Shown here in pieces: positions 7,072 through 54,786 of a stretch of DNA of 60,008 nt (the first letter of the stretch is position 1; every line of letters starts with the position of its first letter). The DNA comes from a virus. Taxonomy: Duplodnaviria > Caudoviricetes. The stretch is taken from positions 1 to 60,008 of IMG/VR virus record IMGVR_UViG_3300032330_000731. One strand, written 5' to 3'. The position numbers and the translations under genes are program-made. A model generated the notes under the pieces. It worked only from the letters and a program-made list of their open reading frames with translations. It was not told the origin of the DNA and did not search any database.

Positions 7072-7367
7072 ATTACCAAAACAAAAAACTACTTGAGATT
7101 ATCAGGGAATCTCCGTGCCAAGCCTGCGGGATTAGTGATGGCACTGTTGTTGCTGCCCATTCCAATCAGTTAAGAGACGGAAAAGGAAAGGGCATTAAAG
7201 CACATGATTACAGGATTGCCGCGCTTTGCTTTAAATGCCACTTTGATTTAGATCAAGGCAATAAGATGAGCAAAGAAGAGCGGCGGGAGTTCTGGGAAGA
7301 AGCTCACCGCCGCAGCATAGGATGGTTATTTGAATCAGGCTTGATTATTGTAAAGCCTTCTTCATAG
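7068..7367 (+). CDS. DUF1364/Ref-like HNH-fold zinc nuclease
   Basis: CQACG...AAHSN...GKG.GIKA.D...A.LC..CH. Confidence 0.75.
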   Translation: MNYQNKKLLEIIRESPCQACGISDGTVVAAHSNQLRDGKGKGIKAHDYRIAALCFKCHFDLDQGNKMSKEERREFWEEAHRRSIGWLFESGLIIVKPSS

Positions 7368-13300: not shown

Positions 13301-16300
13301 GGCCCATTGAGACTACCGCTAGGCCATTCAAAATCAGTTTTTGCCAATAACGGATTTGTGCTTACGTCCAAATCACTTGAGCCAAACCCAGCGGTCGTGG
13401 GGAAAACTCCCATCACTTGGTTTTTACGCAAATCACGAATTGCATTCCAAGGGGACGCAATGTAGTCTAAATTGTCTGCGCTATTAAAATCAATAAACCA
13501 GAATTTATACCCAGACTTCTTTAATGCAAGGTACTGATCGGTTGTTTGCTGGATAAGGTTTTTATAAGCCTCTTTGACAACAGGGTCTTGAGGATTATGC
13601 TGCATCGCCTCATAGGCGTCGGCCAGACGCTTTCCTCGGGCGGGGTCTGCCTTGACGTATTCCGTCTGCCGCCTTAGCTTTATTCCTTTGTCTTTTGCGT
13701 ACCGTTCAGCAACGTCAACAATTTTGGGGTCTGGCCCGTTAGCGCCTGGGACAGACGGAGCGCCTTGTAAAGGCGCAATTGTGCGGTCCTCTCCCCGTCG
13801 CTCTCCTCTGTCTCCGGGTTCTGCTGCTCGGATGGAAGACCTTGCCTTGCTTCCTTCGCGGCTTCCTTCATCGGGTCGAACGGCAGATTGTTTAGATCGT
13901 ACTTGTCCATTTTTTTCTCCTTCAACTTGTTGCAAGGTAGATTGTACGCTAGCTTGCGTTGCTTTAGGAGCCTTTAGCTGACCCTTAGCCACCTTGGTAA
14001 AGATTTGTTCTGCGATTTGATCAGACGTATAGAACCCGGTCCCGTTCAACGCAGACTTAATACCCTGAAACAGCATCTTCATGCGGGCAGTCAACGCAGC
14101 AAGCATGCCAGGAGGAGCCTTGACACTGAAGTCTCCAAAGGCATCAGCAATCGCCTCTTCAACAATCATGTCCATGTTGCCGTTGTACTTGACCATATAG
14201 GCGTCGTACCGGCTCATGGTCTTGCCATCAAGCTCTACCTGCCTGCTCTTGAGATACTGATCAATCCACTTACTATTAGCCTGACTGGTCAATGACTTCC
14301 ACTGACTGTCAGTGAAAAAGCCAAGCTCCTTTAAAGCATGGATGGTTTCATGCCTAAGAACACGCAAAGGATTGTCTGCATCAACAGCAATGCTCATTAG
14401 CTTTTCAGCATAAGAGCCTTCTTCTGCGGAGTTGATTTCTTCAATTAGCTTGACTGAAACATCCTTAAGACCCATGCGGGTAAGAATTGTTTTTAAAGCA
14501 TTAGAAAGCTGAACCTTCTTTTCAGCAATTTCTGCTTCAATCTTTTTGGTGTTCTCAGCCTTTTGTTGCTCAAGCTCTGCCCGCGTTTCTTTAGGAGCTT
14601 CTGTGCCGGGAGCTTCTGTCTTTTCGCGCAGAGATTCCTGAATAGGCGATGTTTGGAAAGCGTTAGGAAAATCTTTTACCAGCTTAGTGTTTTTAAACCT
14701 TAAAAGCGCAGCCTGATTGCCAGGGACTTGAAAAGACTGTCCTTGAAAGTTAAATGTGTGGCGGTTAGGAGCATTCGGAGCGGTAGACCCTTCAATTGCT
14801 TGATTAACCTTATCAAGAACAGTCTGCGCTTCTTCGTTTAAAGCAGTTACTGCCTTTGGAGCTTCTACGGGAGCTTCTTGCTTTGTTTTGCTGCCAGGAG
14901 TAACTTCAGTAATTGTTGTACCGAAGTGAATACCAGTGCCCTCGTTACCAATTGGGCTGGCTTCGCTATAGACCTCTACCGGGCTTAGGCCAACGCTGGG
15001 CGTGGTTTGATAAGGCACTGTAGCTAGTACCGTGCCGGCTTTTTTAGGACCGTAATCTTCTGTAAGCCTAAGCTCTAACTGCCCAGTAGGTTTATTGTCT
15101 TCAACGACAGGAACTAGCTCAGTGGCAATGTCTGCGTTTTGAAATACACCACCTACTTTGTTTACATCATCTGGGGTTAAGAATACAGTTTTAGCAGATC
15201 GCGGTTGCAGCCCAGTTGTGGTGTCAAGATGATTAGCACCGCTTCTGTTGCGCGTAGTGCTGTTATCGCTGTGATATGCGTATGTAGAACCACGTTCTGT
15301 TTTAAATGTGGAAACTACATCAGGCAAGTCTAGCAGTGGATTTACTGCAGTGGGTGCATTTCCTTCTCCACCAACAGGGACTCCAGCATCTTGCCCAGTA
15401 GGAATAGCTCCAGTTCGTTCAATTGACTCACCGTTTGCGGAGGTTCCAGCCGTGGGTTCCACAGCCACCGCAAGGTTTCCTCCACTTGGCTGTGCGACAG
15501 TTCTTGTAGCATCTTGTTCCTTTACAGATTGAATTTGATTAGCAATTGCAAGCGGTTGATTACCTGCTGCTAGTGCAGCTAACTCAGTGTTGGCATTGGC
15601 GATTTGGGCCGAAGGGTCTTGAGTGCCTTGCTGTAAATTACCAATCGCAGCCTGAGCATTAAGAATTTCTTGCTGAAGCCTGATTGTAGTTTGCTCTAGG
15701 CTTTCCCCTGCCCTTTGTCCAGGCTGAAGCGGGGCAGCAGGCGCACCTTGTCCAATAACGCCGCCAAGTACACCACCACCAATTGCACCAAGACCCGCAG
15801 CTTGACCTACACCTTGGGTCAATGAGCGGGTGGGATCAATCTGTTGAAGGTTGACATTGGATGCAAACTTGCCGCCACCTTCTTCAATCATTTCAGACGC
15901 AGCTTCGCCTAGTGCCGAACGAATGCGTCCTTCACCGGGAAGACCGGCCATCCTGCGTTCAATTGCTCGACCACCAGGAAGACGTTGGGCTAACAAAGAA
16001 ACAATGCCTGCTTCACCTGCGGTGGCTCTCGCCTTGCTAAGGGCTAAAGCCTGCCGGTCTTCTAAAGACATGCCAGGATATTGCTTTTCAGCTAAATCTA
16101 GTGCTTCTTTATAAGTGTCGGCACCAACATCTGCGCCCTGTTGTGCAACACCAGTGCCAATAGCCACCCTAGCTGCGCCGGCTCGGGCTGCAGCTTCTGC
16201 GGCTTCTTTGGTGCCATACTTGGCTAGTTGACGGGCGCCAGTTGAAAGAGCAGTGTACGCACCACCTGTCAACAACGCAGGAAGTAATTGAGGAACTTGC

Positions 16301-43597: not shown

Positions 43598-45094
43598 TTA
43601 ATAGTATTCAACCCTGCGACGAGGCAAATCATACTCTGCTTCATCTGTGTCAATTGTGATAAATCCACCTTGTCTAAACCTAATCAATGCTTGACTAGAA
43701 GAGTCCACAAGGTCATCGTTATCACCATTGGGAAAAGCTGCAAGTTCTTCCATCACTTCATCTGCCCATCTAGTCTCAGGGCACCAAACAACACCTGAAG
43801 CGAAAAGATCAGAAATAGCATTTACACGCGCAATCTTGTCATGTCCTTTGCCTGGGGTGTACTCAGACAATGGAATACCAATCTTCCTTAATTCATAAAT
43901 CAAAGGGGCACCTGCAGCCTTCTTTTCAATAATTAAGGTATCAGGCTCCCATTCCTTCCACATATCAAACGCAGCCTTCTTAAGCTCAGGAAACTCCATT
44001 CGTTTCTTAAAAGCATTTAGCAAGATGATATTTGGTTTTAAATTACCATACTTGTCAGGATGGTAAAAAACACCCCAAGTTGTACAAGCAGAGTAGTCAG
44101 CCCTGTTTGATTTTTCAAATGCTGTGTCCCAAGACTGAATAAGATAATCACAAGAGGGTGGGTCTTCTTTTTTCCAAATCTGCCATTGATCCCTCTTGAT
44201 GATCGCACCCTCTTCTGAGGTTGGATTTTGTTGGTACTGCGCTTCCCATTTGGATACAGGTAGTTCAGCCTTGAGGGCTTCTAGCTCTTCTTTACTCCAA
44301 AACGCAGGCCATAACGGAGTACCAGAAGGAAGGATTGCAGGGAACTCAATAACTTCCCACTCATTTACACCATCCTTCTCTGAGCCTTTAAGAATCTTTC
44401 CTGTTAAATCTCTGGTACTCCATCGAGTCATAACAACAACAATGGCCCCTCCAGGCTGTAAACGCTGACGGGGGCCTGATGTGTACCACTCATACACATT
44501 ATCAAAGATTGCAGGATTGTTTTGCTTTGCTTCCTGTTCACTATGAGGGTCGTCAATAATTAAAAGATCAGCACCCTTACCTGTTACAGCACCACCTACA
44601 CCAATAGCAAAATAATCACCACCTTTATTGGTATTCCATCGTCCTGCAGCTTTTGAATCACTAGATAGCTTTGTATCAAAAACTTTACTATATTGTTCAG
44701 AAGAAACTAGATTTCTAACTTTACGTCCAAAGCCTACAGCCAACTCCGCAGTGTGTGCTGTTTGAATAATCTTCTTCTCCGGGAACTTACCTAAAAACCA
44801 TGAAGGAAGTAAAAAAGAAGCAAACTCAGACTTAGTATGCCTAGGCGGCATGTTAATAATTAACCGCTTCAATTCTCCAGAAGCAACTCTCTCAAAAGCA
44901 TCAGCCATGATCTTATGGTGTTTACCTGAAATAAACACCGGCCACATCTGTTGAGTAAAGAACAAAAAAGACTCTTTACACCGTTCTACACGGTCAAGCT
45001 CCATTAAAGCAAATATCTTATTTCTCTCTGCTTCAGGAACTTGATCAACAATTGCTAAATAACTAGCAATCTCTTGTTTTGTCAAAAGACTCAC
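43598..45094 (-). CDS. terL: terminase large subunit
   Basis: MPPRHTKS Walker A, LLIIDD Walker B, QSWDTAF and DDLVDS nuclease motifs. Confidence 0.95.
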   Translation of the reverse strand: MSLLTKQEIASYLAIVDQVPEAERNKIFALMELDRVERCKESFLFFTQQMWPVFISGKHHKIMADAFERVASGELKRLIINMPPRHTKSEFASFLLPSWFLGKFPEKKIIQTAHTAELAVGFGRKVRNLVSSEQYSKVFDTKLSSDSKAAGRWNTNKGGDYFAIGVGGAVTGKGADLLIIDDPHSEQEAKQNNPAIFDNVYEWYTSGPRQRLQPGGAIVVVMTRWSTRDLTGKILKGSEKDGVNEWEVIEFPAILPSGTPLWPAFWSKEELEALKAELPVSKWEAQYQQNPTSEEGAIIKRDQWQIWKKEDPPSCDYLIQSWDTAFEKSNRADYSACTTWGVFYHPDKYGNLKPNIILLNAFKKRMEFPELKKAAFDMWKEWEPDTLIIEKKAAGAPLIYELRKIGIPLSEYTPGKGHDKIARVNAISDLFASGVVWCPETRWADEVMEELAAFPNGDNDDLVDSSSQALIRFRQGGFITIDTDEAEYDLPRRRVEYY

Positions 45095-45315
45095 AGGTCT
45101 TTCTCCACAACTTTTACAGAATAAAACTTACGTTTTGTATATTCCAAATGACCAGACTCAACAAGCCTCATAACAATCCTGTGCATATTAGACCTTGATT
45201 TCATCTTAAAACCTTTTGCTAAAGCCTCATACGATGGACTAATACCATGTAGCTTGTTATAAGCTTTAATAAAGTCCAATACAGACTGCCATCGTCTAGT
45301 CAATTTTTTAGCCAT
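45091..45315 (-). CDS. LexA-like DNA-binding domain protein (no protease domain)
   Basis: LT.R...VLDFI......HG.SPSY..LA......SRS..HR....L...G.L. Confidence 0.85.
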   Translation of the reverse strand: MAKKLTRRWQSVLDFIKAYNKLHGISPSYEALAKGFKMKSRSNMHRIVMRLVESGHLEYTKRKFYSVKVVEKDL

Positions 45316-45349
45316 GATTACATTGTAAATACAAGTGTACGCACTTATT

Positions 45350-45545
45350 TTTTTACAAAAATATATATACCGGGGGGTATAGATTAAGAAAGTGATGGGG
45401 GGGGTGTTAAATATAAGATATTGTAATGAGGCAAGTGGAAATTAGTGGATTAATTTGGGTAAGTATTAGTTTGAGTGGATTAGAGCGTTACTGTTGGACG
45501 GGTCACTGCTAACCACAAAGGGGTATACCCCGGTGGGTGGGTCAA
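45350..45545. other. G-tract/palindrome-rich intergenic region, candidate packaging (pac) site
   Basis: ATATATATACCGGGGGG, a G8 run, and the perfect palindrome GGGGTATACCCC (45520..45531) between terS and terL. Confidence 0.4.
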
Positions 45546-45590
45546 ACCATATCCACATATTCACCCAAACCCTCTCCCCACATTTACACA

Positions 45591-46187
45591 CTACGCCTTC
45601 TTCTTCGTGTTATCCAGCAGACGTAAATGCCCAGACAGTTCCTTCTTCAATTGATCGGCTGTCACGACTGGTGCTGTTTCGGATGTGGATTGTGTAAATA
45701 CGCCTGATGCTTTGCCGAGTAATTCAAGGGCCTTTAAACGTGATCCTTCCTGTTTATCGTTCCGACTATGCGCAACCAACTCCCTCAGCACATACCTTCG
45801 TGCCGCCGCCAAGTCATCCGACAACGCCTCTACTGTCTGTCCCCACGCATCATTTAACATTTGGGACACCCTCGGGTGCCGACTTAATTTGTACGCAGAC
45901 GATGCGATTATTTGATCTGAGCTAGTGTCGTTTGGATAAGCAGCCTTATAGGCATCCTTCATTGTCATCCCTGAAATGATGTTGTTAATAAACGCCTGCT
46001 GTGCGATGGTCAGTGGGCGTTGTTTGGGTAACCCCCTTAGTGTTCCGTCTGATCTAGGTTTTGGTCCTGGTGCGAGACTAGCTAACTGTTCCACTTCAGA
46101 CTTTTCCGCGTTTTCTAGATTTAAATCATCCTCAGCGTCTTGACGGTCTAACTCTGCCAAATAATCTCTAATCGGTGCTTTGCTCAT
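45591..46187 (-). CDS. terS: terminase small subunit
   Basis: LT..QQAF......G.....AY.AAY HTH; A..L...P.V; RLKALELLGK..G.F. Confidence 0.85.
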   Translation of the reverse strand: MSKAPIRDYLAELDRQDAEDDLNLENAEKSEVEQLASLAPGPKPRSDGTLRGLPKQRPLTIAQQAFINNIISGMTMKDAYKAAYPNDTSSDQIIASSAYKLSRHPRVSQMLNDAWGQTVEALSDDLAAARRYVLRELVAHSRNDKQEGSRLKALELLGKASGVFTQSTSETAPVVTADQLKKELSGHLRLLDNTKKKA

Positions 46188-46256
46188 TTTTGAAACCTCG
46201 TTTATGCGAACGACCATACCCTTATCAGGATAGTGCTTTGTACGCAGTGTAAACCC

Positions 46257-46300
46257 TTGTCCACAGCTTGTCCACATACTCTATCCACATCTTATCCACA
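46257..46300 (+). promoter_or_regulatory. four tandem DnaA boxes (TTATCCACA orientation)
   Basis: TTGTCCACA 46257, TTGTCCACA 46268, CTATCCACA 46281, TTATCCACA 46292. Confidence 0.8.
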
Positions 46301-46346
46301 AGACGTAAGCACCCGGAGTCTGCCTGTAAACCCAGGGTAAACCCGA

Positions 46347-46429
46347 GTCTTCTATAAGACCTATTCCCACTCTTATATAAGACACAAGACTAGTCTTCTA
46401 TAAGACCTGACCGCAGTCTTCTATAAGAC
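46347..46429. repeat. four 14-bp palindromic repeats GTCTT-(C/A)TAT-AAGAC with a 23-bp period
   Basis: copies start at 46347, 46370, 46393 and 46416. Confidence 0.92.
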
Positions 46430-46432
46430 CTG

Positions 46433-46476
46433 TGTGGATAAACCTGTGGATAACTTATGTATAACCCTGTGGATAA
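46433..46476 (-). promoter_or_regulatory. four tandem DnaA boxes (TGTGGATAA orientation)
   Basis: TGTGGATAA 46433, 46445, 46468; TATGTATAA 46456. Confidence 0.85.
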
Positions 46477-46672
46477 CTTCGTTGTATAAAAGAGACAAAA
46501 CGCCTAGGATCGACGAACGGACCACGGTTGATAGCACGGTAGCTATCTGACCATTAAACGCAGCCTGGGCCGTTTTAATGCGTTCTAGGGGCATGTATGT
46601 TTAGACAGTGCTTGTGCTTTACAGGCCAGTCCAGTCTAGGTGTTTACCCTAGTCATGCCTTTTTGGTCTTTT

Positions 46673-46689
46673 CTGGCACGGTGGTTGCT
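46673..46689 (+). promoter_or_regulatory. sigma-54 (-24/-12) consensus site
   Basis: CTGGCACG-GTGG-TTGCT matches YTGGCACG-N4-TTGCW; faces the early operon. Confidence 0.6.
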
Positions 46690-46857
46690 ACGCGGGCGCG
46701 CACGGGCGCACGTTGGGTAGATTGATTGATGCTTGTCGGTCTGACGCGAGAACGACCATCACTTAGGGTAAGCACCTAGGCTATCGTGTTTACAGTGCGC
46801 GCAGCAATCGATAGCATCGGGGCTGGTTTAACAGCCCATGATGGGCATGGAGTGAAA

Positions 46858-47370
46858 ATGAACAGAGAGCAATGGTTAATGCAGGCGGTGGAAGAACTGC
46901 GCCCACTATTCCAGGCTGCTGGATACTCTTTGCCCACCACTGTGCGGGTTACCTGCGGGTTCCCTAGCACTGCCCGACGCAGTGGCACGTTGGGTGAAAC
47001 GTGGTCCGCAGCAGACTCTGCGGACGGCGCCACGGAAGTGATGATCAGCCCGGTACTGGCCGGCGCTGCGGATGTGCTGGCGGTGCTGCTGACACAATTG
47101 TCAGTGGCCGCTGATGGGCGTAAGCATGCCCAGGTGCTGTCGGCTGTCGGGTCCAATCCTGATGACTATGCCGGCCTGCTGGCGGACCTGGGCGACTATC
47201 CCCATGCTGCCCTGGCACTGCCCACCAAAGCCACTCAGGTCACCCGCATGCTGAAGGCCTGCTGCCCCTCGTGCGGTTACACCGTGCGACTCACGCAGAA
47301 ATGGGTTAGCAAAGGCCTGCCCATTTGCGGCACTTGTGGTGAAGGGTTTAAATTGGAGGCTGCAGAATGA
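46858..47370 (+). CDS. SprT-like protein lacking HExxH, with C-terminal zinc ribbon
   Basis: REQWL...LRP.F...VRVTCGFP...GE.W....SADG..E..ISP; TRMLK..CP.CGYTVR...KW...GLP.C. Confidence 0.75.
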   Translation: MNREQWLMQAVEELRPLFQAAGYSLPTTVRVTCGFPSTARRSGTLGETWSAADSADGATEVMISPVLAGAADVLAVLLTQLSVAADGRKHAQVLSAVGSNPDDYAGLLADLGDYPHAALALPTKATQVTRMLKACCPSCGYTVRLTQKWVSKGLPICGTCGEGFKLEAAE

Positions 47371-48956
47371 GCCGCGCTATTGTTTCGATTCTCAAGCACC
47401 CTGCTAGCACTGTGCTGGCTGCCGCCCGCGCACTGGGCTACACCGGGGCAGACGACAAAATGACCGCCGCAGAATGGATCGTTGTTTGCGGGCATGTCCA
47501 GGCGTTTGAGGGGCTTGTCGCGTCAGCGCAGCCGGCGCCAATCCTGGCGTATAAACCCAGCACCGCGATGGCAGCACTGCCACCCGCAAAACCTGCTAAA
47601 CCTGATCCGGTGTTTGTCCCGGTTGTCAATGACTGGGGGCAGAAAGCGATGTCGGCCATTACTGCGGTGGACAATCAACTCCAGGCAGTGGTGGTGGCTG
47701 TTGCTAAGCTCACGGGTGATCTGTCGGGCATCGATTCCCGCGCTGACAGCGCAAAGCTGGCCGCCGCTACTGCCCGTTCAGAGGCTCAACGCGCAGCAAC
47801 GCAGGCGGGCGACATGGTGCAGCAGGCCCGCGCCGACATGCAAAAAACCGAGACCGAATTGCGCCGCGCTATCGCTGATGCGGTGGCCCAGTTGCAGGCC
47901 CGTCCCGCGCCTGTCATTGACCCTGCTGCAGTCGCTACGGAGGTCTCCCAGGCTGTCGCTGCTGCGTTTAAACCGTTTGCCCAGGCTGTGACTGATGCCG
48001 GCGCAGAATCGACCATCGGCGCGATGACGTCAGCTAGCATTGTTGATCGGAAAACCGCAAAACAGGTTTTCGGAGTGAATGTTAATGACGCAAAGGGCAG
48101 TCCGGTAATGGTTGATATTTGGGACCATCCCGGCGCCCCTGCGGTTGACCCGACCTTTATTTGGTCTAAACCCATTCTGCGGCACCTGCTGCTGTCGCAA
48201 TCGACGGGCGAAAATGTTTGGTTTGGTGGAGATAAGGGCACAGGTAAGTCTGAGACTGCCCGACAATTTGCTGCACGCACGGGCCGTGGATTTACACGGA
48301 TTAACTTTCACAAGTATTCCGCCCAGGAGGACTATCTCGGCGCGACTGGCCTTCAAGCCGGGTCTACCGCCTTCGAGCCGCAAGCCTTTTTGAAGGCTTA
48401 CACAAGCCCTAGCACGGTCATCCTGCTGGATGAAGTGACTAACGCTGATCCGGGCAATCTGGCGCCCCTGAATGGCCTGCTGGAGCCCGGCGCTGCGGTT
48501 TCAATCGGTGGTCACGTTTGGAGGCGTGCCCCGGGCGTGCTTGTCTTTGCTGCAGACAATACCCTAGGCAGTGGAGATCAGTCGGGCCGGTATGCTGGCA
48601 CCCGTGAGATGAATAGCAGTCTGATTGACCGTTTTCCTCGGATTGTGCGGTTTGATTTTCTGCCCATGAAATCGGAAGTGGAAGCTGTCGTCCGACATAC
48701 TGGGTGCGTGCCCGAGTTGGCAGAGCATATTCTGCAGGCAGTTAATATCGCCCGTCAAAAAGTCACTACGGGCGATATTGTGGACGCACCCTCGATCCGC
48801 TCGGTGATCGGTTTCATCCGTGCGCTGGCGATGATGCCAGTAGAGGATGCGTGGGCCTCCAGTATTGCCGCACGCCAGCCCGCTGAGTCTGCCCTGGCGC
48901 TGGAGGCTATCCGCACGGCATCAATTGATGAATCTAAAATTAAAGGCTGGATTTAA
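47367..48956 (+). CDS. MoxR/CobS-like AAA+ ATPase with N-terminal coiled coil
   Basis: GDKGTGKS Walker A, ILLDE Walker B, AADNTLG.G, LIDRF. Confidence 0.9.
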   Translation: MSRAIVSILKHPASTVLAAARALGYTGADDKMTAAEWIVVCGHVQAFEGLVASAQPAPILAYKPSTAMAALPPAKPAKPDPVFVPVVNDWGQKAMSAITAVDNQLQAVVVAVAKLTGDLSGIDSRADSAKLAAATARSEAQRAATQAGDMVQQARADMQKTETELRRAIADAVAQLQARPAPVIDPAAVATEVSQAVAAAFKPFAQAVTDAGAESTIGAMTSASIVDRKTAKQVFGVNVNDAKGSPVMVDIWDHPGAPAVDPTFIWSKPILRHLLLSQSTGENVWFGGDKGTGKSETARQFAARTGRGFTRINFHKYSAQEDYLGATGLQAGSTAFEPQAFLKAYTSPSTVILLDEVTNADPGNLAPLNGLLEPGAAVSIGGHVWRRAPGVLVFAADNTLGSGDQSGRYAGTREMNSSLIDRFPRIVRFDFLPMKSEVEAVVRHTGCVPELAEHILQAVNIARQKVTTGDIVDAPSIRSVIGFIRALAMMPVEDAWASSIAARQPAESALALEAIRTASIDESKIKGWI

Positions 48957-48957
48957 A

Positions 48958-50535
48958 ATGAATCTCCAAACCATTATTGGCCGCCCGCAGGTGCTGGGCT
49001 GGGAATTGCGCACCGCAATCGAGCAGGCTTTGCCACGCATCACCCAGGCGCTGGCAATCAATCCTGTTAGCGTTTTTTGGGCGCCCGGCGCCACTACGGC
49101 ATCCATCGGACAGTATGGTGACATCCGGCTTCCCATGGTCAGTGATGATGCCGTTATCGGTCGGTCTATGGTGACGCGGTACGTGGGTTATATCGTCCAC
49201 GAGCTTCTGCACCGCAAATATACTGACTTTAATGTAAACGCTCCAAACGAGTATTTGGCCCGCTTCCACAATGCCGTGGAGGACGTTTGGATTGAGCGTA
49301 GGGCTGTCTCTGCTGCTTTGCTGGGCAATATTGAAAACCTTTTGTCCGGTTTGGTTGACGGTATTGTTGGCGAAGCCCTGGCACAGACTATTGATTGGAC
49401 AAACCCGGCCCAGTTTCCATTCTCTTTTGCGGTGTTTGGCCGTAAATACGTTTCCCGCAAAATCCCTGTCCCGGGCAATCTGCTGTCAATTTACATTGAA
49501 GCAGACAAGCGCATTGATTCCTGTCAATCATCCGCAGACACCCTAGAAGTGGCCCGCTGGATTGTGGATCAAATTGGGAAACAAGACAGCAAGCCAAACA
49601 AGCCCAGGGAGGCCCAGGGAGGCGCGCAGGGCGACGCACAGGGGGAAGCCCAGGGCGATGCACAGGAAGGCGATCAGGAAGCCCAGGGTGACGCGAAGGA
49701 AGGCGCCCAGGAAGCCCCTGATGCGGGGCAAAGCAAGCCCCTAAACGGCAAGCACGATACGGCAGTCGAAGTGGAACCCGGCCTGCCTGCTCGCCCTGGC
49801 GATAGGGGGACGTTCTGCCGTGGAAATAGTGTTTTGCCTGATCGGATTCACACTCCCACATGGGCATCGTATAGGTTAGAAGATTCTGATGTTCCTGCAG
49901 CACTGCGGGTTGATATTCGGAAGCTGTTTGCCAACACAGCAAACGACGATTGGCAAATGCACCGCAAAACAGGGTCAATTGATACCCGTCAATTGGCGAC
50001 TGGAGGCGCCAGCATGTTTAAACGTCGTCTGGAAACCTCCGGTGTTGATTCTTCGGTTGTTATCCTGCTGGATGTTTCCGGGTCTATGTTCCCTCGCCTG
50101 ATTGGACCGGCTGCAGGTGCCTGCATGGCCCTTATGTCTGCACTTGATGGTGCTGGAGTTGAATCCGCGCTGCTTACGTTCGGCGACGGTGTTTCGACGG
50201 TCAAACCGTTTGGCAAGAATAGTCGCCAAACAAAGCAACATCTTCAACATATAAACATGGGCGGAGGAACTGATGACTATGTTGCTTTGCTGCATGCGCA
50301 TAGTCTTTTGCATACCCGCAAAACAGGCCGGAAGGTTTGTTTTGTAGTGACCGACGGAGAGGGCCGTGTTTCAGAGACTAGAGCGCAAGCAAAAATTGGC
50401 GCAAACCTGGGCATTACGACCATCGGTATCGGTATTGATAAAGATGTTTCATATATTTATAAACATGCCGTGATGGTGAGAAAAGTGTCCGACCTGGGCG
50501 CCGCGATGTTCTCAAAGATCAAAGGAGTTCTTTGA
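48958..50535 (+). CDS. CobT-like VWA-domain protein with HExxH
   Basis: HELLH...N.VED..IE; acidic linker; LLDVSGSM (MIDAS), GGT, VTDG. Confidence 0.88.
   Translation: MNLQTIIGRPQVLGWELRTAIEQALPRITQALAINPVSVFWAPGATTASIGQYGDIRLPMVSDDAVIGRSMVTRYVGYIVHELLHRKYTDFNVNAPNEYLARFHNAVEDVWIERRAVSAALLGNIENLLSGLVDGIVGEALAQTIDWTNPAQFPFSFAVFGRKYVSRKIPVPGNLLSIYIEADKRIDSCQSSADTLEVARWIVDQIGKQDSKPNKPREAQGGAQGDAQGEAQGDAQEGDQEAQGDAKEGAQEAPDAGQSKPLNGKHDTAVEVEPGLPARPGDRGTFCRGNSVLPDRIHTPTWASYRLEDSDVPAALRVDIRKLFANTANDDWQMHRKTGSIDTRQLATGGASMFKRRLETSGVDSSVVILLDVSGSMFPRLIGPAAGACMALMSALDGAGVESALLTFGDGVSTVKPFGKNSRQTKQHLQHINMGGGTDDYVALLHAHSLLHTRKTGRKVCFVVTDGEGRVSETRAQAKIGANLGITTIGIGIDKDVSYIYKHAVMVRKVSDLGAAMFSKIKGVL
49609..49716 (+). 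repeat. degenerate 12-bp tandem repeat encoding (E/D/G)AQG units
   Basis: EAQGGAQGDAQGEAQGDAQEGDQEAQGDAKEGAQEA linker. Confidence 0.7.
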
Positions 50536-50547
50536 CCCTAGCCGCTA

Positions 50548-50565
50548 GCCCTGGTTCGCCAGGGC
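50548..50565 (+). other. GC-rich hairpin in the early intergenic region (no U-tract)
   Basis: GCCCTGG-TTCG-CCAGGGC. Confidence 0.6.
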
Positions 50566-50610
50566 GTGCGAGTGGGGCCACAGTGGCAACACATACCCGG
50601 ATATAAAACA

Positions 50611-50934
50611 ATGTCAAACGACGAACTGAACGTGCAGCAGGGCGCTGCATATGAAGCACTTCGCAACGCAATCGAAGCCGCAGTGGATGCCCTGGCAAGC
50701 GCTACAACCGCAGCCAACGTCTACGCCCATGTAGTGGCACTGCAGAGCGATGACCCTGCTCAGACCCTGGCGCAGTTAGCCTGGACGAACCGGGGAAGCT
50801 GGAGCGGTGGCCCGTTGGGCAAGAACAATCTGCAGGAGAACCTGCTGCGCGAGGAGGCTCTGCAACTGATGGTGCGCGATGAGTGGATGCGCCGCCCCTT
50901 GCGCAAGCTGCGCCCCATGAAAGGCCCGCAATGA
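50611..50934 (+). CDS. hypothetical protein
   Basis: ORF with GC-rich codon use. Confidence 0.7.
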   Translation: MSNDELNVQQGAAYEALRNAIEAAVDALASATTAANVYAHVVALQSDDPAQTLAQLAWTNRGSWSGGPLGKNNLQENLLREEALQLMVRDEWMRRPLRKLRPMKGPQ

Positions 50935-51014
50935 TGGAGGAAGTCTGGGATTTGCTGTTTGCCGCAGCACTGGGCGTGGCGGGTGCCTACCTGCTGGTGC
51001 TGTGGATAGCATGA
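50931..51014 (+). CDS. small membrane peptide (MMEEVWDLLFAAALGVAGAYLLVLWIA)
   Basis: hand translation; ATGA coupling. Confidence 0.5.
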   Translation: MMEEVWDLLFAAALGVAGAYLLVLWIA

Positions 51015-52038: not shown

Positions 52039-54786
52039 TTAAAACTTATCCACTAATTCAGAATACGTTCCTGCGGTTTTGTTATATAGCAAAGCCGTCT
52101 CGCCCTGGGTGCCAACCCATCTATATCTGCACTTCCAGACTGCAATCTCTACCATCTTGTCTGCCCGGTGGACGGTAATACCGCAGTCTGTTTTGGCCCA
52201 CCATGCCATTGAATTACCAGATACAACAACCTTGCCATTCCTCCGCGTGATGTATGCGCCTGTCGATACAGTCAAGCAATACACCTTACCTGCGTAAGGT
52301 ACAACAACCATATTTCGGGCGGGTTCAACCGTTCTTTCTTTTTCATTTCTGATCATTACGATATAACGGTCGTAATGATGAGACAGCGCCCCAGCGTAGG
52401 ATGAAATGTGCGCCCACATACCAAGCTCAATACATAGCCTCTGCACATCGTCTGCAAGCTGCTTGCTGGCAGTGTGATAAGTCGTATACCCTGATTCTTG
52501 TACGCTTCCGTCCCCAAAAATCATCCCGTCAAGCAACGCCTTCTTTGCTTCAATGGAAGATGACCATATCAGATTTGGAAGCCGCTTATTGGCGCAGCCT
52601 TCACCACAGTTTTCAATAACAAATTTCTGAAGCTCAGGGTTAGATCGCTTAAACATCCTGTTAACCCACATTGGCTTTTCGTATTCGCGTGCTGATTTAC
52701 GAACAACGCAAGAGGATTTGACGCCAAGAGCGCTTACAACTTCCCTTGGCAGACTAGAGTTCTCATCTACTTGGCAAACTGACAGTGCGCCCATAGACAC
52801 ATGCCCCTCCGCTATCCAAAAACCAACGTACCACCAGAACGGGTGGAGCGCATAGCCGTGATCAAAGTTTAAATTAGTAGGCGACGAGGCTTGGACTGGA
52901 TTGCCGACCATTGGAATAGACCAGCGTGATGTGGTTACATCCTCGCTATTGCAAAAATTAAATCCTTTACTCCAAGTGCATGGACGGCCCGTCTTTTTTG
53001 ACCCCTTAGTCTTCTTCCGGCTAAATGCAGGCTTAACCAACATTCTGTGGTTTGGAGTTATCAGGAAGTCGGTTCCATTACCAGACCAGTGATGCATTGG
53101 TCCGTCATGGTCGTATTCATGGATATGCTCCGGCAGTTCATAAAAAACATCCTGGGTATCTGGATTGAAGACGGCAACCCTATCTTCGTAGGATACTTGA
53201 GAGTGGTTGACCCATCCCCTCATCGTCAAGACTTCCGTATCTGACGAATAACACCCGCTAATGCTCATTCCATCCGGCCTGGGTTGATCGACGCCTGAAC
53301 GATTGACCTTACTAGGGTGAGCAACGAAAAATGTGTGGACATCGAACGCCTTACAGAACTTTTGAATTCTGGTCAGCATGTTACTGATTGCTTCTGTTTC
53401 TGTAGTGTTGTCCCGGGGAAGCTCAAGATAGTTATAAGGGTCAATCACCAAACCCCGGATTCCCATACGCTTTACACCGACCCTTGCTCTGTCAAGGATT
53501 GAGTCTAGGGTCGATGGTTCCTCTCCGTTTGAGTCGATGAATAGGAAGTGGTCATTCACCCAGTCAAGCGCAGCAGACTTTTCTGAATGAGACATGCGGT
53601 CCTTACCCTCAAAGAACCGTTTACCCGTGTAAATCTCCATCAGCCGGGATATATGAATCTCGGGTTGATTCTCAAAGCTACAAACCGCAAACTTCCAGTC
53701 ATCTTTCCTGGCAATGTTTACCATCATTTGATCAACGAAATTACTTTTGCCCGATGACGGATAACCCGTCACGACCGTAAGCTGCCCAGGTGCAACTGTG
53801 TAAATCTGGTCAACCGAGGAATATCCAGTCGAGAATCCCTTGCCTGTTCCTTTGGCGTATAAATCATTCAGCCTGTCTTCATACGAGGCTGCGATGGTCA
53901 GGCCGGCGATTGGATACGGCGCGGCAGCATCAATAATTTCATTAACCCTGACCCTCCCCGTCCGTGATGGGTCATTCCGTGATGGGTCAAGGAAGACTTC
54001 ATTCAGGTCTTTACTAGAGAACTTTGCAATCCTGCATTTCTCTTTGCCAATTCTGCGTGCCAGTTCTTCGGCTAACGCTTGGCCGGGACCATCCTGGTCT
54101 GTTGCTAATACTACATACGGTGCTGCGTCCAGTATCTCCCGCGCATTCCATACATAAGCAAACTTTTTATCCTCAGACGGCAGTACCTTTCCATCTGCGA
54201 CTTTGATTGGCGCCCCGGAAGGCACACTAACTGCATTTAAAACTCCAGACTCAATCAATGTCAGGCAATCAATCTCACCTTCGACAATGATGATTGGCTT
54301 GCCTTTTTCTACAAGGTCAATACCAAAGAAGTCATGCGCACCCCCGGCGTCTTGTGTAAAATCCTTTTCAGGGAACGATCTATATTTGGCAGATACTAAC
54401 GCCCCGTTCCTGAAATAAGGAAAACCAATTGCATCTGCGGTTTTGTTTAGGCGACTAAAGAATTTATCCGCAGCAAATAACTGCATTTTGTCTGCGGTTT
54501 CTTTAGTTATACCCCTTGTAAGTAAATAAGCATAATGTTTTTCTTCTAACTTATTACTGATAATTTCTTTAGTCACTATAGCTGCCAATTTAAACTCCCG
54601 TTTGGTCTTTGGTTGTATAGCGCCTGTCTCTTGACAGTGGTGACAGTAGTAAAGAACTGCCCCGTCACCCTTGCGGGTGAGCGTCATGTCTTTTGCCCTG
54701 CTGTTTTTTCTGTCTCCCGAGCATGCGGGGCAGGCTACTCTCGTTGATTCATTGAAGTCAAATTGCTCAATGAACTCAGGTGTCAT
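52039..54786 (-). CDS. Twinkle/T7 gp4-like primase-helicase, intein-containing
   Basis: N-terminal CPAC...CHHC zinc finger; TOPRIM (EGEID, DQD); GYPSSGKS; VIDPY; VAHP. Confidence 0.93.
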   Translation of the reverse strand: MTPEFIEQFDFNESTRVACPACSGDRKNSRAKDMTLTRKGDGAVLYYCHHCQETGAIQPKTKREFKLAAIVTKEIISNKLEEKHYAYLLTRGITKETADKMQLFAADKFFSRLNKTADAIGFPYFRNGALVSAKYRSFPEKDFTQDAGGAHDFFGIDLVEKGKPIIIVEGEIDCLTLIESGVLNAVSVPSGAPIKVADGKVLPSEDKKFAYVWNAREILDAAPYVVLATDQDGPGQALAEELARRIGKEKCRIAKFSSKDLNEVFLDPSRNDPSRTGRVRVNEIIDAAAPYPIAGLTIAASYEDRLNDLYAKGTGKGFSTGYSSVDQIYTVAPGQLTVVTGYPSSGKSNFVDQMMVNIARKDDWKFAVCSFENQPEIHISRLMEIYTGKRFFEGKDRMSHSEKSAALDWVNDHFLFIDSNGEEPSTLDSILDRARVGVKRMGIRGLVIDPYNYLELPRDNTTETEAISNMLTRIQKFCKAFDVHTFFVAHPSKVNRSGVDQPRPDGMSISGCYSSDTEVLTMRGWVNHSQVSYEDRVAVFNPDTQDVFYELPEHIHEYDHDGPMHHWSGNGTDFLITPNHRMLVKPAFSRKKTKGSKKTGRPCTWSKGFNFCNSEDVTTSRWSIPMVGNPVQASSPTNLNFDHGYALHPFWWYVGFWIAEGHVSMGALSVCQVDENSSLPREVVSALGVKSSCVVRKSAREYEKPMWVNRMFKRSNPELQKFVIENCGEGCANKRLPNLIWSSSIEAKKALLDGMIFGDGSVQESGYTTYHTASKQLADDVQRLCIELGMWAHISSYAGALSHHYDRYIVMIRNEKERTVEPARNMVVVPYAGKVYCLTVSTGAYITRRNGKVVVSGNSMAWWAKTDCGITVHRADKMVEIAVWKCRYRWVGTQGETALLYNKTAGTYSELVDKF
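52213..53253 (-). mobile_element. intein with LAGLIDADG endonuclease (347 aa)
   Basis: SISG|CYSSDTEVLT...GFWIAEG...LLDGMIFGDG...VYCLTV...RRNGKVVVSGN|SMAWW. Confidence 0.93.

Follow-up and report, generated by a model that had tools for sequence, protein, structure and literature searches.

Clusters of boxes for the bacterial initiator protein DnaA are found in theta-type origins of replication, such as bacterial oriC, P1 oriR, R6K gamma and RK2 oriV, and in datA and DARS of Escherichia coli, chromosomal loci for the titration and recharging of DnaA that depend on IHF or Fis sites arranged in a fixed geometry. Classical sigma-54 promoters have an upstream enhancer and an IHF site. The injection-stop region of T5 contains eight DnaA boxes, whose role is so far only proposed (10.1101/866236), and LexA boxes together with a LexA-like protein, gp6, are reported for GIL01 (PMC6182141, PMC4551915). 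Here, we analyse a 667 bp non-coding gap (positions 46191-46857) in IMGVR_UViG_3300032330_000731, a complete viral record of 60,008 bp (Duplodnaviria; Caudoviricetes), the whole of which is called the window below. The gap lies between divergent transcription units, the terS gene for the terminase small subunit and a SprT-like/MoxR-AAA/VWA operon.

By comparison with related phages and with bacterial genomes, the gap is a mosaic of modules matching the sites of host proteins, namely DnaA, a metabolic regulator of the HutC type and sigma-54, each backed either by conservation or by host genomes. We tentatively read it as the main cis-control hub of the phage, where replication and transcription would be driven by host factors, and hold this reading to be somewhat less than evenly probable; a cis-control function, an origin included, is ranked first, and a decoy function second. 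Host transcription-factor sites have been known in phages singly, as LexA boxes or a few DnaA boxes, and here a whole control region would be drawn from three unrelated host systems. The host hints in the sequence point to Burkholderiales. The elements of the gap are:

46246..46274, minus strand: sigma-70-like promoter TGGACA-N17-TACACT facing terS, a pattern match from a consensus scan, with its -35 hexamer inside DnaA box 2.
46249, 46305, 46326 and 46337 (46249..46344), plus strand; 46640, minus strand; 46768, plus strand; 46786, minus strand: GTAARCMC motifs, forming short dyads and, around the arrays, nested inverted repeats.
46257..46300, plus strand: left DnaA-box array, with boxes at 46257, 46268, 46281 and 46292 (spacing 11, 13 and 11 bp), the first at +67 from the terS ATG, a position like that in relatives.
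46347..46429, no strand assigned: four operator copies 23 bp apart, GTCTTCTATAAGAC three times and CTCTTATATAAGAC once; the same 14-mers occur in bacterial genomes at isocitrate lyase or at mdh/gntR.
46433..46476, minus strand: right DnaA-box array, with perfect boxes at 46433, 46445 and 46468 and a degenerate box at 46456, at a period of about 12 bp.
46560..46612, plus strand: conserved non-coding block CCTGGGCCGTTYTRATGCGTTYTAGRGSCATGTA..ATACAGTG of about 50 bp, seen in alignments, ending in nTGT-N8-ACAG and lying upstream of the sigma-54 site.
46593-46608: near-LexA dyad ATGT-N8-ACAG, within the conserved block.
46674..46689, plus strand: sigma-54 -24/-12 element TGGCACGGTGGTTGCT, an exact consensus facing the early operon, 184 bp before the ATG.
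46789..46817, plus strand: sigma-70-like promoter TTTACA-N17-TAGCAT from the consensus scan, preceded by the dyad TAGGGTAAGCACCTAGG; the same module stands before two genes of the relative L002.

An earlier note on this DNA had described four plus four opposed DnaA boxes, four phased palindromes, several GTAA(A/G)C(A/C)C motifs, a consensus sigma-54 site and a near-LexA box. The opposed arrays are present, with seven boxes of at most one mismatch, while the eighth proved degenerate (TATGTATAA, 46456-46464, two mismatches). The palindromes were recovered as four sites matching GTCTTNTATAAGAC with up to two mismatches, each counted once per strand, which gives 8 matches where 0.97 were expected; there are no others in the window. 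GTAARCMC occurs 13 times in the window, against 7.4 expected, with seven of these copies inside the gap, and the sigma-54 site and the near-LexA dyad are likewise where they had been seen.

We identified 28 matches to TTATCCACA with at most one mismatch in the window, against 13.6 +/- 3.5 in shuffled sequences, and positions 46257-46476 hold seven of them and all four perfect copies. The clustered boxes, seven with at most one mismatch and the degenerate eighth, lie within 220 bp and keep helical phase, with periods of 11 and 12 bp. Tandem Repeats Finder resolved the region into three arrays with periods of 11, 23 and 12 (46256-46300, 46346-46432 and 46433-46476), the only tandem arrays in the window outside identified reading frames, which favours a cis-control function.

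To place the gap in its family we searched IMG/VR with the phrog_6361 protein, and obtained 34 loci, 30 of which also show terS. These have a common layout, with terL, a LexA-like gene and terS leftward, the gap, and the phrog_6361, AAA and VWA genes rightward, at a TerL identity of 63-96%. The terL-to-VWA layout is shared by L159, a contig of a Burkholderiales metagenome-assembled genome (MAG), and by the IMG/VR contig L313. The gaps were dereplicated to 22 lineages, or 23 with L159, and the first 700 bp after terS in the 22 lineages (14.7 kb) were compared with a flanking control (134 kb). DnaA boxes number 66 in the gaps (4.49 per kb) and 50 in the control (0.37 per kb). Pieces of the extended box AAGTTATCCACAGG rank first in an unbiased scan of 7- and 8-mers, and GTGGATAA is present in 18 of 23 gaps as opposed to 8 of 175 control windows. 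Outside the DnaA boxes, hardly any of the gap can be aligned across lineages by blastn, indicating that the boxes are under selection. At least three boxes were found in 14 of the 23 lineages and two boxes in another two; among the 16 lineages with two or more, all except one have their first box +55 to +111 from the terS ATG. In the three box-bearing records searched whole (G001, G004 and G005), the cluster is the only one of its kind.

Separately, L014 (2717-2850) and L019 (2455-2590) carry a direct duplication of roughly 122 bp, with a single perfect DnaA box in each copy and, after it, a GTGTA...TACAC dyad. In the relatives the word GTTTAAAC is strongly over-represented, with 119 copies in the 134 kb of flanking DNA and 32 in the 14.7 kb of gaps, and the window has only five, against 1.7 expected; the word may serve as a promoter or operator element throughout the family, exchanged for GTTTAC-type motifs in the window lineage. 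The tandem pair TGTGGATAA-ACC-TGTGNATAAC was tried as an identifier of the host and set aside, since it is common in bacterial genome contigs of many phyla (at least 120 stretches) and is thus not diagnostic. Searches of a plasmid collection and a phage collection for similar DNA returned short DnaA-box matches only.

The palindromes lead to a different bacterial system. A composite pattern of the dyad, 1-8 nt and a DnaA-like box retrieved three bacterial contigs, one of them from a Hydrogenophaga sp. MAG. In the contig of this MAG, GTCTTATATAAGAC and GTCTTCTATAAGAC, both variants present in the phage, stand 29 bp apart about 75-105 bp before an isocitrate lyase gene (Pfam, E 1.4e-114), and the MAG has three operator sites in all, the third directly upstream of a gene for a GntR protein with a UTRA domain. 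Three of the window sites match the bacterial dyad exactly, and one has one mismatch. Across the family of the Hydrogenophaga MAG, the exact operator occurs in 93 of 121 genomes, mostly in one to three copies each, among which pairs spaced 29-31 bp are frequent; a reversed control pattern gave 7 hits in total over the same genomes, as counted from the table. We sampled 14 operator loci, of which ten precede isocitrate lyase (68-94% identical to that of the MAG) by 65-150 bp, and four lie between malate dehydrogenase and a divergent GntR gene, which in L293 also encodes a UTRA domain. On the strength of these matches, the GTCTTNTATAAGAC palindrome is a bacterial operator, a conserved, non-random regulatory element beside a regulator gene. 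The HutC-type GntR protein is the candidate binder of the dyad, assigned by gene neighbourhood; it resembles HutC-subfamily models at scores below every NCBIfam cut-off, and a literature search brought up no paper naming the regulator. The finding predicts that this uncharacterised regulator governs glyoxylate-shunt and TCA genes, with a regulon of aceA, mdh and its own gene, and the operator offers a sequence handle by which such phages might be assigned to hosts in the family of the Hydrogenophaga MAG.

Four repeats at 23 bp flanked by DnaA boxes also resemble iteron origins such as P1 oriR and R6K gamma, and 23 bp is the operator spacing of lambda OR. The array might be an iteron-type origin, or an operator set, for a dimeric DNA-binding protein of the phage itself, for example the 117-aa winged-helix protein (2442-2795) or a 74-aa LexA-like protein, with the DnaA boxes as auxiliary sites. 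We consider this very improbable: the repeat is identical to the chromosomal operator just described, and is found also in phages that have none of the tested proteins in common with the window, and there is no adjacent Rep-like gene. For the 117-aa protein there are winged-helix hits, and none of the five relatives searched has it; it shows no similarity to the host GntR protein (GntR Pfam, 13.1 bits, below the cut-off), and was rejected as a GntR mimic.

We additionally identified the operator in other phages. Tandem pairs of the exact operator were found in 28 IMG/VR contigs, which contain two to six sites with one mismatch allowed, most commonly at a period of 23 bp, and also at 22, 26 and 30 bp. 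Twenty-four of these contigs share none of 26 window proteins (E <= 1e-5), and L313 is the only relative of the window phage among them. The arrays sit in varied contexts, with fewer than three DnaA boxes within 300 bp in 23 of the 28, indicating that the operator module is independent of the setting seen in the gap. An operator array follows a T7-like TerL in L228 (1308-1440) and L321 (4379-4418), and precedes a tail-spike gene in L163; in a T7-type genome, the position in L228 and L321 would adjoin the terminal repeat and the early promoters. In L162, which has a TerL of a different family, GGGTAAACCC, a DnaA box and two operators 23 bp apart are followed by about six DnaA-like boxes, in a cassette 73% identical over 98 nt to positions 46391-46477 of the window and located upstream of an HNH gene, two small unassigned open reading frames (one possibly terS), terL and portal.

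This distribution fits a DNA sponge. Under such a reading, which we regard as possible though rather unlikely, the arrays have no role in cis, and the amplifying phage DNA would soak up a scarce host metabolic repressor and DnaA. Isocitrate lyase and malate dehydrogenase would thereby be derepressed, an effect like that of an auxiliary metabolic gene but achieved without a gene, and new initiation on the host chromosome would be blocked. Put in general terms, and held with the same doubt, Burkholderiales phages would carry operator arrays, here with DnaA boxes, as amplifying sponges that titrate a HutC-type regulator and DnaA, switch on host isocitrate lyase and malate dehydrogenase, stop re-initiation and serve as a copy-number clock for release of the late promoter. 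The numbers suit this proposal, with one to three operators per host genome and four per phage copy, as do the recurrence of the arrays in differing gene contexts, the absence of isocitrate lyase, malate dehydrogenase and GntR genes from all 28 array-bearing contigs, the cassette held in common with the unrelated phage L162, and the dispensability of the arrays in L002. However, the fixed position of the DnaA array beside the start of terS across the family argues for a local job, and the cassette stands upstream of packaging genes in both the window and L162. A sponge also gives no reason for helical phasing or opposed orientation, and is without precedent, in that our literature search found no phage sponge of DnaA boxes or operators. 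Arrays of two to six copies in at least 28 viral contigs nonetheless point to a general way in which phages might sense the carbon state of the host, or reprogram it, without metabolic genes.

The third module is the sigma-54 site. Exact matches to TGGCAC-N5-TTGCW number three in the window against 0.26 expected, and only that at 46674-46689 is intergenic. Across the lineages, four exact sites were found in gaps and none in the 134 kb control. Relative to the ATG of the first gene, the exact sites of three diverged lineages lie at -184 in the window, -167 in L003 and -172 in L021, L027 and L028, a conserved location that fits a real promoter position. Degenerate versions are present in L159, with one mismatch, and in L006 and L008, where TGGCAT...TGCT stands before inserted genes at the homologous position; the sigma-54 position of L004 is taken by a pair of sigma-70-like hexamers, upstream of the same GC-rich leader. 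Of 31 genomes sampled from the candidate host family, 30 have the rpoN gene, the host assignment itself being inferred. We found no description in the literature of a natural sigma-54 promoter in a phage genome.

A further exact site, in L012 (476-491, minus strand), faces terS, in the late operon, rather than the early operon, in a gap without DnaA boxes, and thus the use of sigma-54 may be a family trait with swappable targets. The two remaining matches in the window, at 7139-7154 (plus strand, in an unlisted short frame) and 16144-16159 (minus strand, in the frame of a 3132-aa protein), appear to be coding (DGTVVA and IGTGVA, respectively) and are probably driven by codon usage. Intragenic binding of sigma-54 is reported for E. 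coli (PMC4591121).

With these three modules, the earlier proposal of sites for several unrelated host factors (a replication initiator, a metabolic repressor and a sigma factor) is supported: the DnaA box is the top conserved motif, the operator is bacterial letter for letter, and the sigma-54 site is conserved in position. Conservation of the motifs in relatives extends to the DnaA boxes and the sigma-54 position, but not to the operator dyad, which within the phage family is confined to the window, L313 and, once or twice, L020. The GTAARCMC motifs could not be linked to a host factor, as GGGTAAACCC shows no enrichment in 41 genomes (about 220 hits and about 190 for the reversed control, added from the table); in L002, GTAARCMC motifs precede two genes within the promoter-like module.

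The mechanism that we envisage for the control hub is as follows. Host DnaA would multimerise on the arrays and either mark the start of replication by host polymerase or occupy the overlapping leftward late promoter, while the host metabolic regulator, bound to the four operators between the arrays, would gate the region by carbon state, and host sigma-54 RNA polymerase with a host activator would drive the early operon. Each new phage copy would add eight DnaA boxes and four operators, compared to the one to three operators of the host genome, so that phage replication should drain both DnaA and the regulator; this draining could set the timing of the late switch and relieve the repression of aceA and mdh in the host. 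The control hub and the sponge are not exclusive, as titration by replicating DNA could itself be the clock for the late genes. We favour cis-control because the DnaA array is fixed beside the start of the late operon, because it overlaps the leftward promoter-like site, and because the phage must use host polymerase.

Several observations weigh against this interpretation. The DnaA array is facultative, with at most one box in seven of the 23 lineages, and G002 (97% complete) and G003 have no DnaA cluster, although their primase-helicase is the same (63-65% identity) and they too lack PolA. In L002, the closest relative (TerL 96%), three left boxes are all that is kept, and operators, right array and sigma-54 site are missing. 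Operator arrays elsewhere sit in varied contexts, and at least three DnaA boxes lie within 300 bp in only five of the 28 contigs. No activator or upstream activating site was recognised for the sigma-54 promoter. No strong unwinding element stands out in the gap, where the 40-mers of lowest stability lie in the operator array (AT 0.68) and at 46450-46489 (AT 0.70), and are weaker than spots nearby and no extreme for the genome; relatives have an A/T tract of 15-20 bp, which the window gap lacks. No initiator gene adjoins the repeats, the neighbours being terS and the SprT-like gene, and no DnaA domain IV was found in the phage. GC skew was tried as a marker of the origin and discarded, since it tracks the coding strand everywhere and gives no independent signal.

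Between the right array and the sigma-54 site, the conserved block at 46560..46612 showed no conserved RNA fold (RNAalifold, -0.14 kcal/mol). A 57-aa minus-strand frame (46421-46594) was considered as a gene, as L004 and L005 match it weakly, and was rejected because the frame stops after six codons in L021 and has no ATG in L025; its similarity thus reflects conservation at the DNA level. The near-LexA type ATGT-N8-ACAG occurs five times in the gaps and twice in the controls. The exact SOS box of the beta/gamma type, CTGT-N8-ACAG, is absent from the window gap, which has ATGT-N8-ACAG instead; it is present in the gaps of seven of the 22 lineages (seven hits, against four in controls), mostly beside terS, as is GTTC-N7-GTTC (five in relatives' gaps, against three in controls). 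A candidate binder of these dyads is encoded nearby:

45091..45315, minus strand: 74-aa winged-helix protein with LexA_DNA_bind (PF01726, E 2.2e-8, above the cut-off), consisting only of the LexA-type DNA-binding domain.

By tblastn, this protein, to which the near-LexA dyad may belong, is matched in 21 of the 34 loci, in each case between terL and terS. The 18 aligned sequences all retain its recognition helix, and we found no covariation between the protein and the dyad type. In several relatives, the 74-aa protein together with CTGT-N8-ACAG and GTTC-N7-GTTC dyads at the start of terS resembles gp6, the LexA-like late activator reported for GIL01.

The genes bordering the gap are:

45591..46190, minus strand: terS, terminase small subunit (phrog_51, E 7.3e-10), with its ATG at 46190; the first gene of a leftward structural and packaging block of roughly 39 kb.
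46858..47370, plus strand: phrog_6361 gene, which opens the GC-rich rightward operon; the label 'SprT-like protease' comes from actinophage records.
47367-48956, plus strand: MoxR/CobS-like AAA gene, next after the phrog_6361 gene.
48847-50535, plus strand: VWA/CobT-like gene, after the AAA gene in the rightward operon.

The annotated minus-strand genes from 46190 down to 7345 are for packaging and structure, and comprise terS, the 74-aa LexA_DNA_bind protein, terL, portal, head and tail genes and the 3132-aa protein. On the other side of the gap, GC content climbs to 0.62 at 47-48 kb. Positions 47000-51000 form a GC-rich island, at 0.55-0.62 compared to about 0.46 elsewhere, in which the metal-site region of the SprT-like protein reads LLTQL rather than an HExxH motif, and the MoxR-like AAA protein has an Ala-rich N-terminal half; the trio of SprT-like, AAA and VWA genes is conserved.

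The adjacency to terS raises the possibility that the region is an element for DNA entry or packaging, either an injection stop or ratchet situated at or close to a physical end of the genome, or a cos or pac site. T5-like phages have eight paired DnaA boxes in their first-step-transfer DNA (10.1101/866236), and the operator array comes directly after TerL in the two T7-like contigs, by inference near their ends. We judge this the least probable of the readings, and the ideas of first-entering DNA and of a binding ratchet in the earlier note found no support. The record carries a 123-bp terminal direct repeat that lies ~13.8 kb from the gap, and starts with a ribosome-binding-site-like stretch and ATG, on which account it is read as an assembly overlap, and not as physical ends. 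The TerS of L002 is 78% identical, yet L002 lacks most of the elements, whereas packaging recognition should covary with TerS; and the elements match host factors, not TerS. In a separate place, between terS and the LexA-like gene (45316-45590), AGTGGA(A/T)T is repeated three times and an inverted repeat, GGGGTATA/TATACCCC, is present. This segment also contains the 40-mer with the highest AT content in the neighbourhood, and is a possible candidate for a pac/cos site or a promoter. The IMG/VR contigs of several relatives end within a few hundred bases of the 3' end of terS.

The replication and recombination genes of the window are a Toprim+DnaB_C primase-helicase with a LAGLIDADG insert, RusA, a Sak annealing protein and nucleases. 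Relatives match only residues 4-512 and 858-915 of the primase-helicase (52039-54786, minus strand), and the insert of about 345 residues, an intein-like element of the LAGLIDADG type, is specific to this phage in comparison with them. No PolA, PolB, DnaA domain IV or GntR domain was detected above the cut-off in the window proteins, in which the Sigma54_activat domain of enhancer-binding proteins scored 13.1 bits, below the cut-off. There was no sign of lysogeny genes among the annotated genes; Rfam gave no match to a structured RNA in the window, and no tRNAs were found. The TerL is 51-59% identical to those of phage 023Pt_psg01 and the HTVC023P-type pelagiphages (51-55% for the pelagiphages). 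The pelagiphages encode PolA (10.1101/2019.12.14.876532; PMC9599517), and the window phage does not, indicating that only the packaging module is common to them. The GenBank relative 023Pt_psg01 was rejected as a comparison for the gap because it is not syntenic here.

Compared to classical sigma-54 promoters, the window has the exact -24 GG/-12 GC element, and in relatives an A/T tract and conserved upstream blocks separate the element from an array of binding sites of an AAA+ protein; the difference is that no enhancer-binding protein or site for one was identified here. DnaA is not a known activator of sigma-54. The likeness to datA and DARS is that of a DnaA-box cluster outside an origin that would act on the DnaA pool, but those loci are chromosomal. 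With oriC and the plasmid theta origins, the gap shares several boxes, an 11-12-bp phase, two opposed arrays flanking repeats of about 23 bp, and an intergenic location. It differs from them in having neither a clear AT-rich unwinding element nor an initiator gene next to it, in that a host metabolic operator takes the place of Rep iterons, and in that the array is absent from some lineages with the same replication genes.

Among phages, the factor concerned here differs from that reported for GIL01, being a HutC-type metabolic regulator of aceA and mdh with arrays of four to six copies, in phages without a sign of lysogeny genes among those annotated; GIL01 and the window phage family are alike in having sites for host transcription factors at their own promoters together with a protein resembling the LexA N-terminus. 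T5 has its boxes in the first-entering terminal repeat, whereas the window region is the boundary of early and late genes; the two regions nevertheless agree in having about eight boxes, closely spaced pairs, inverted orientation and a large untranslated region, conserved among relatives.

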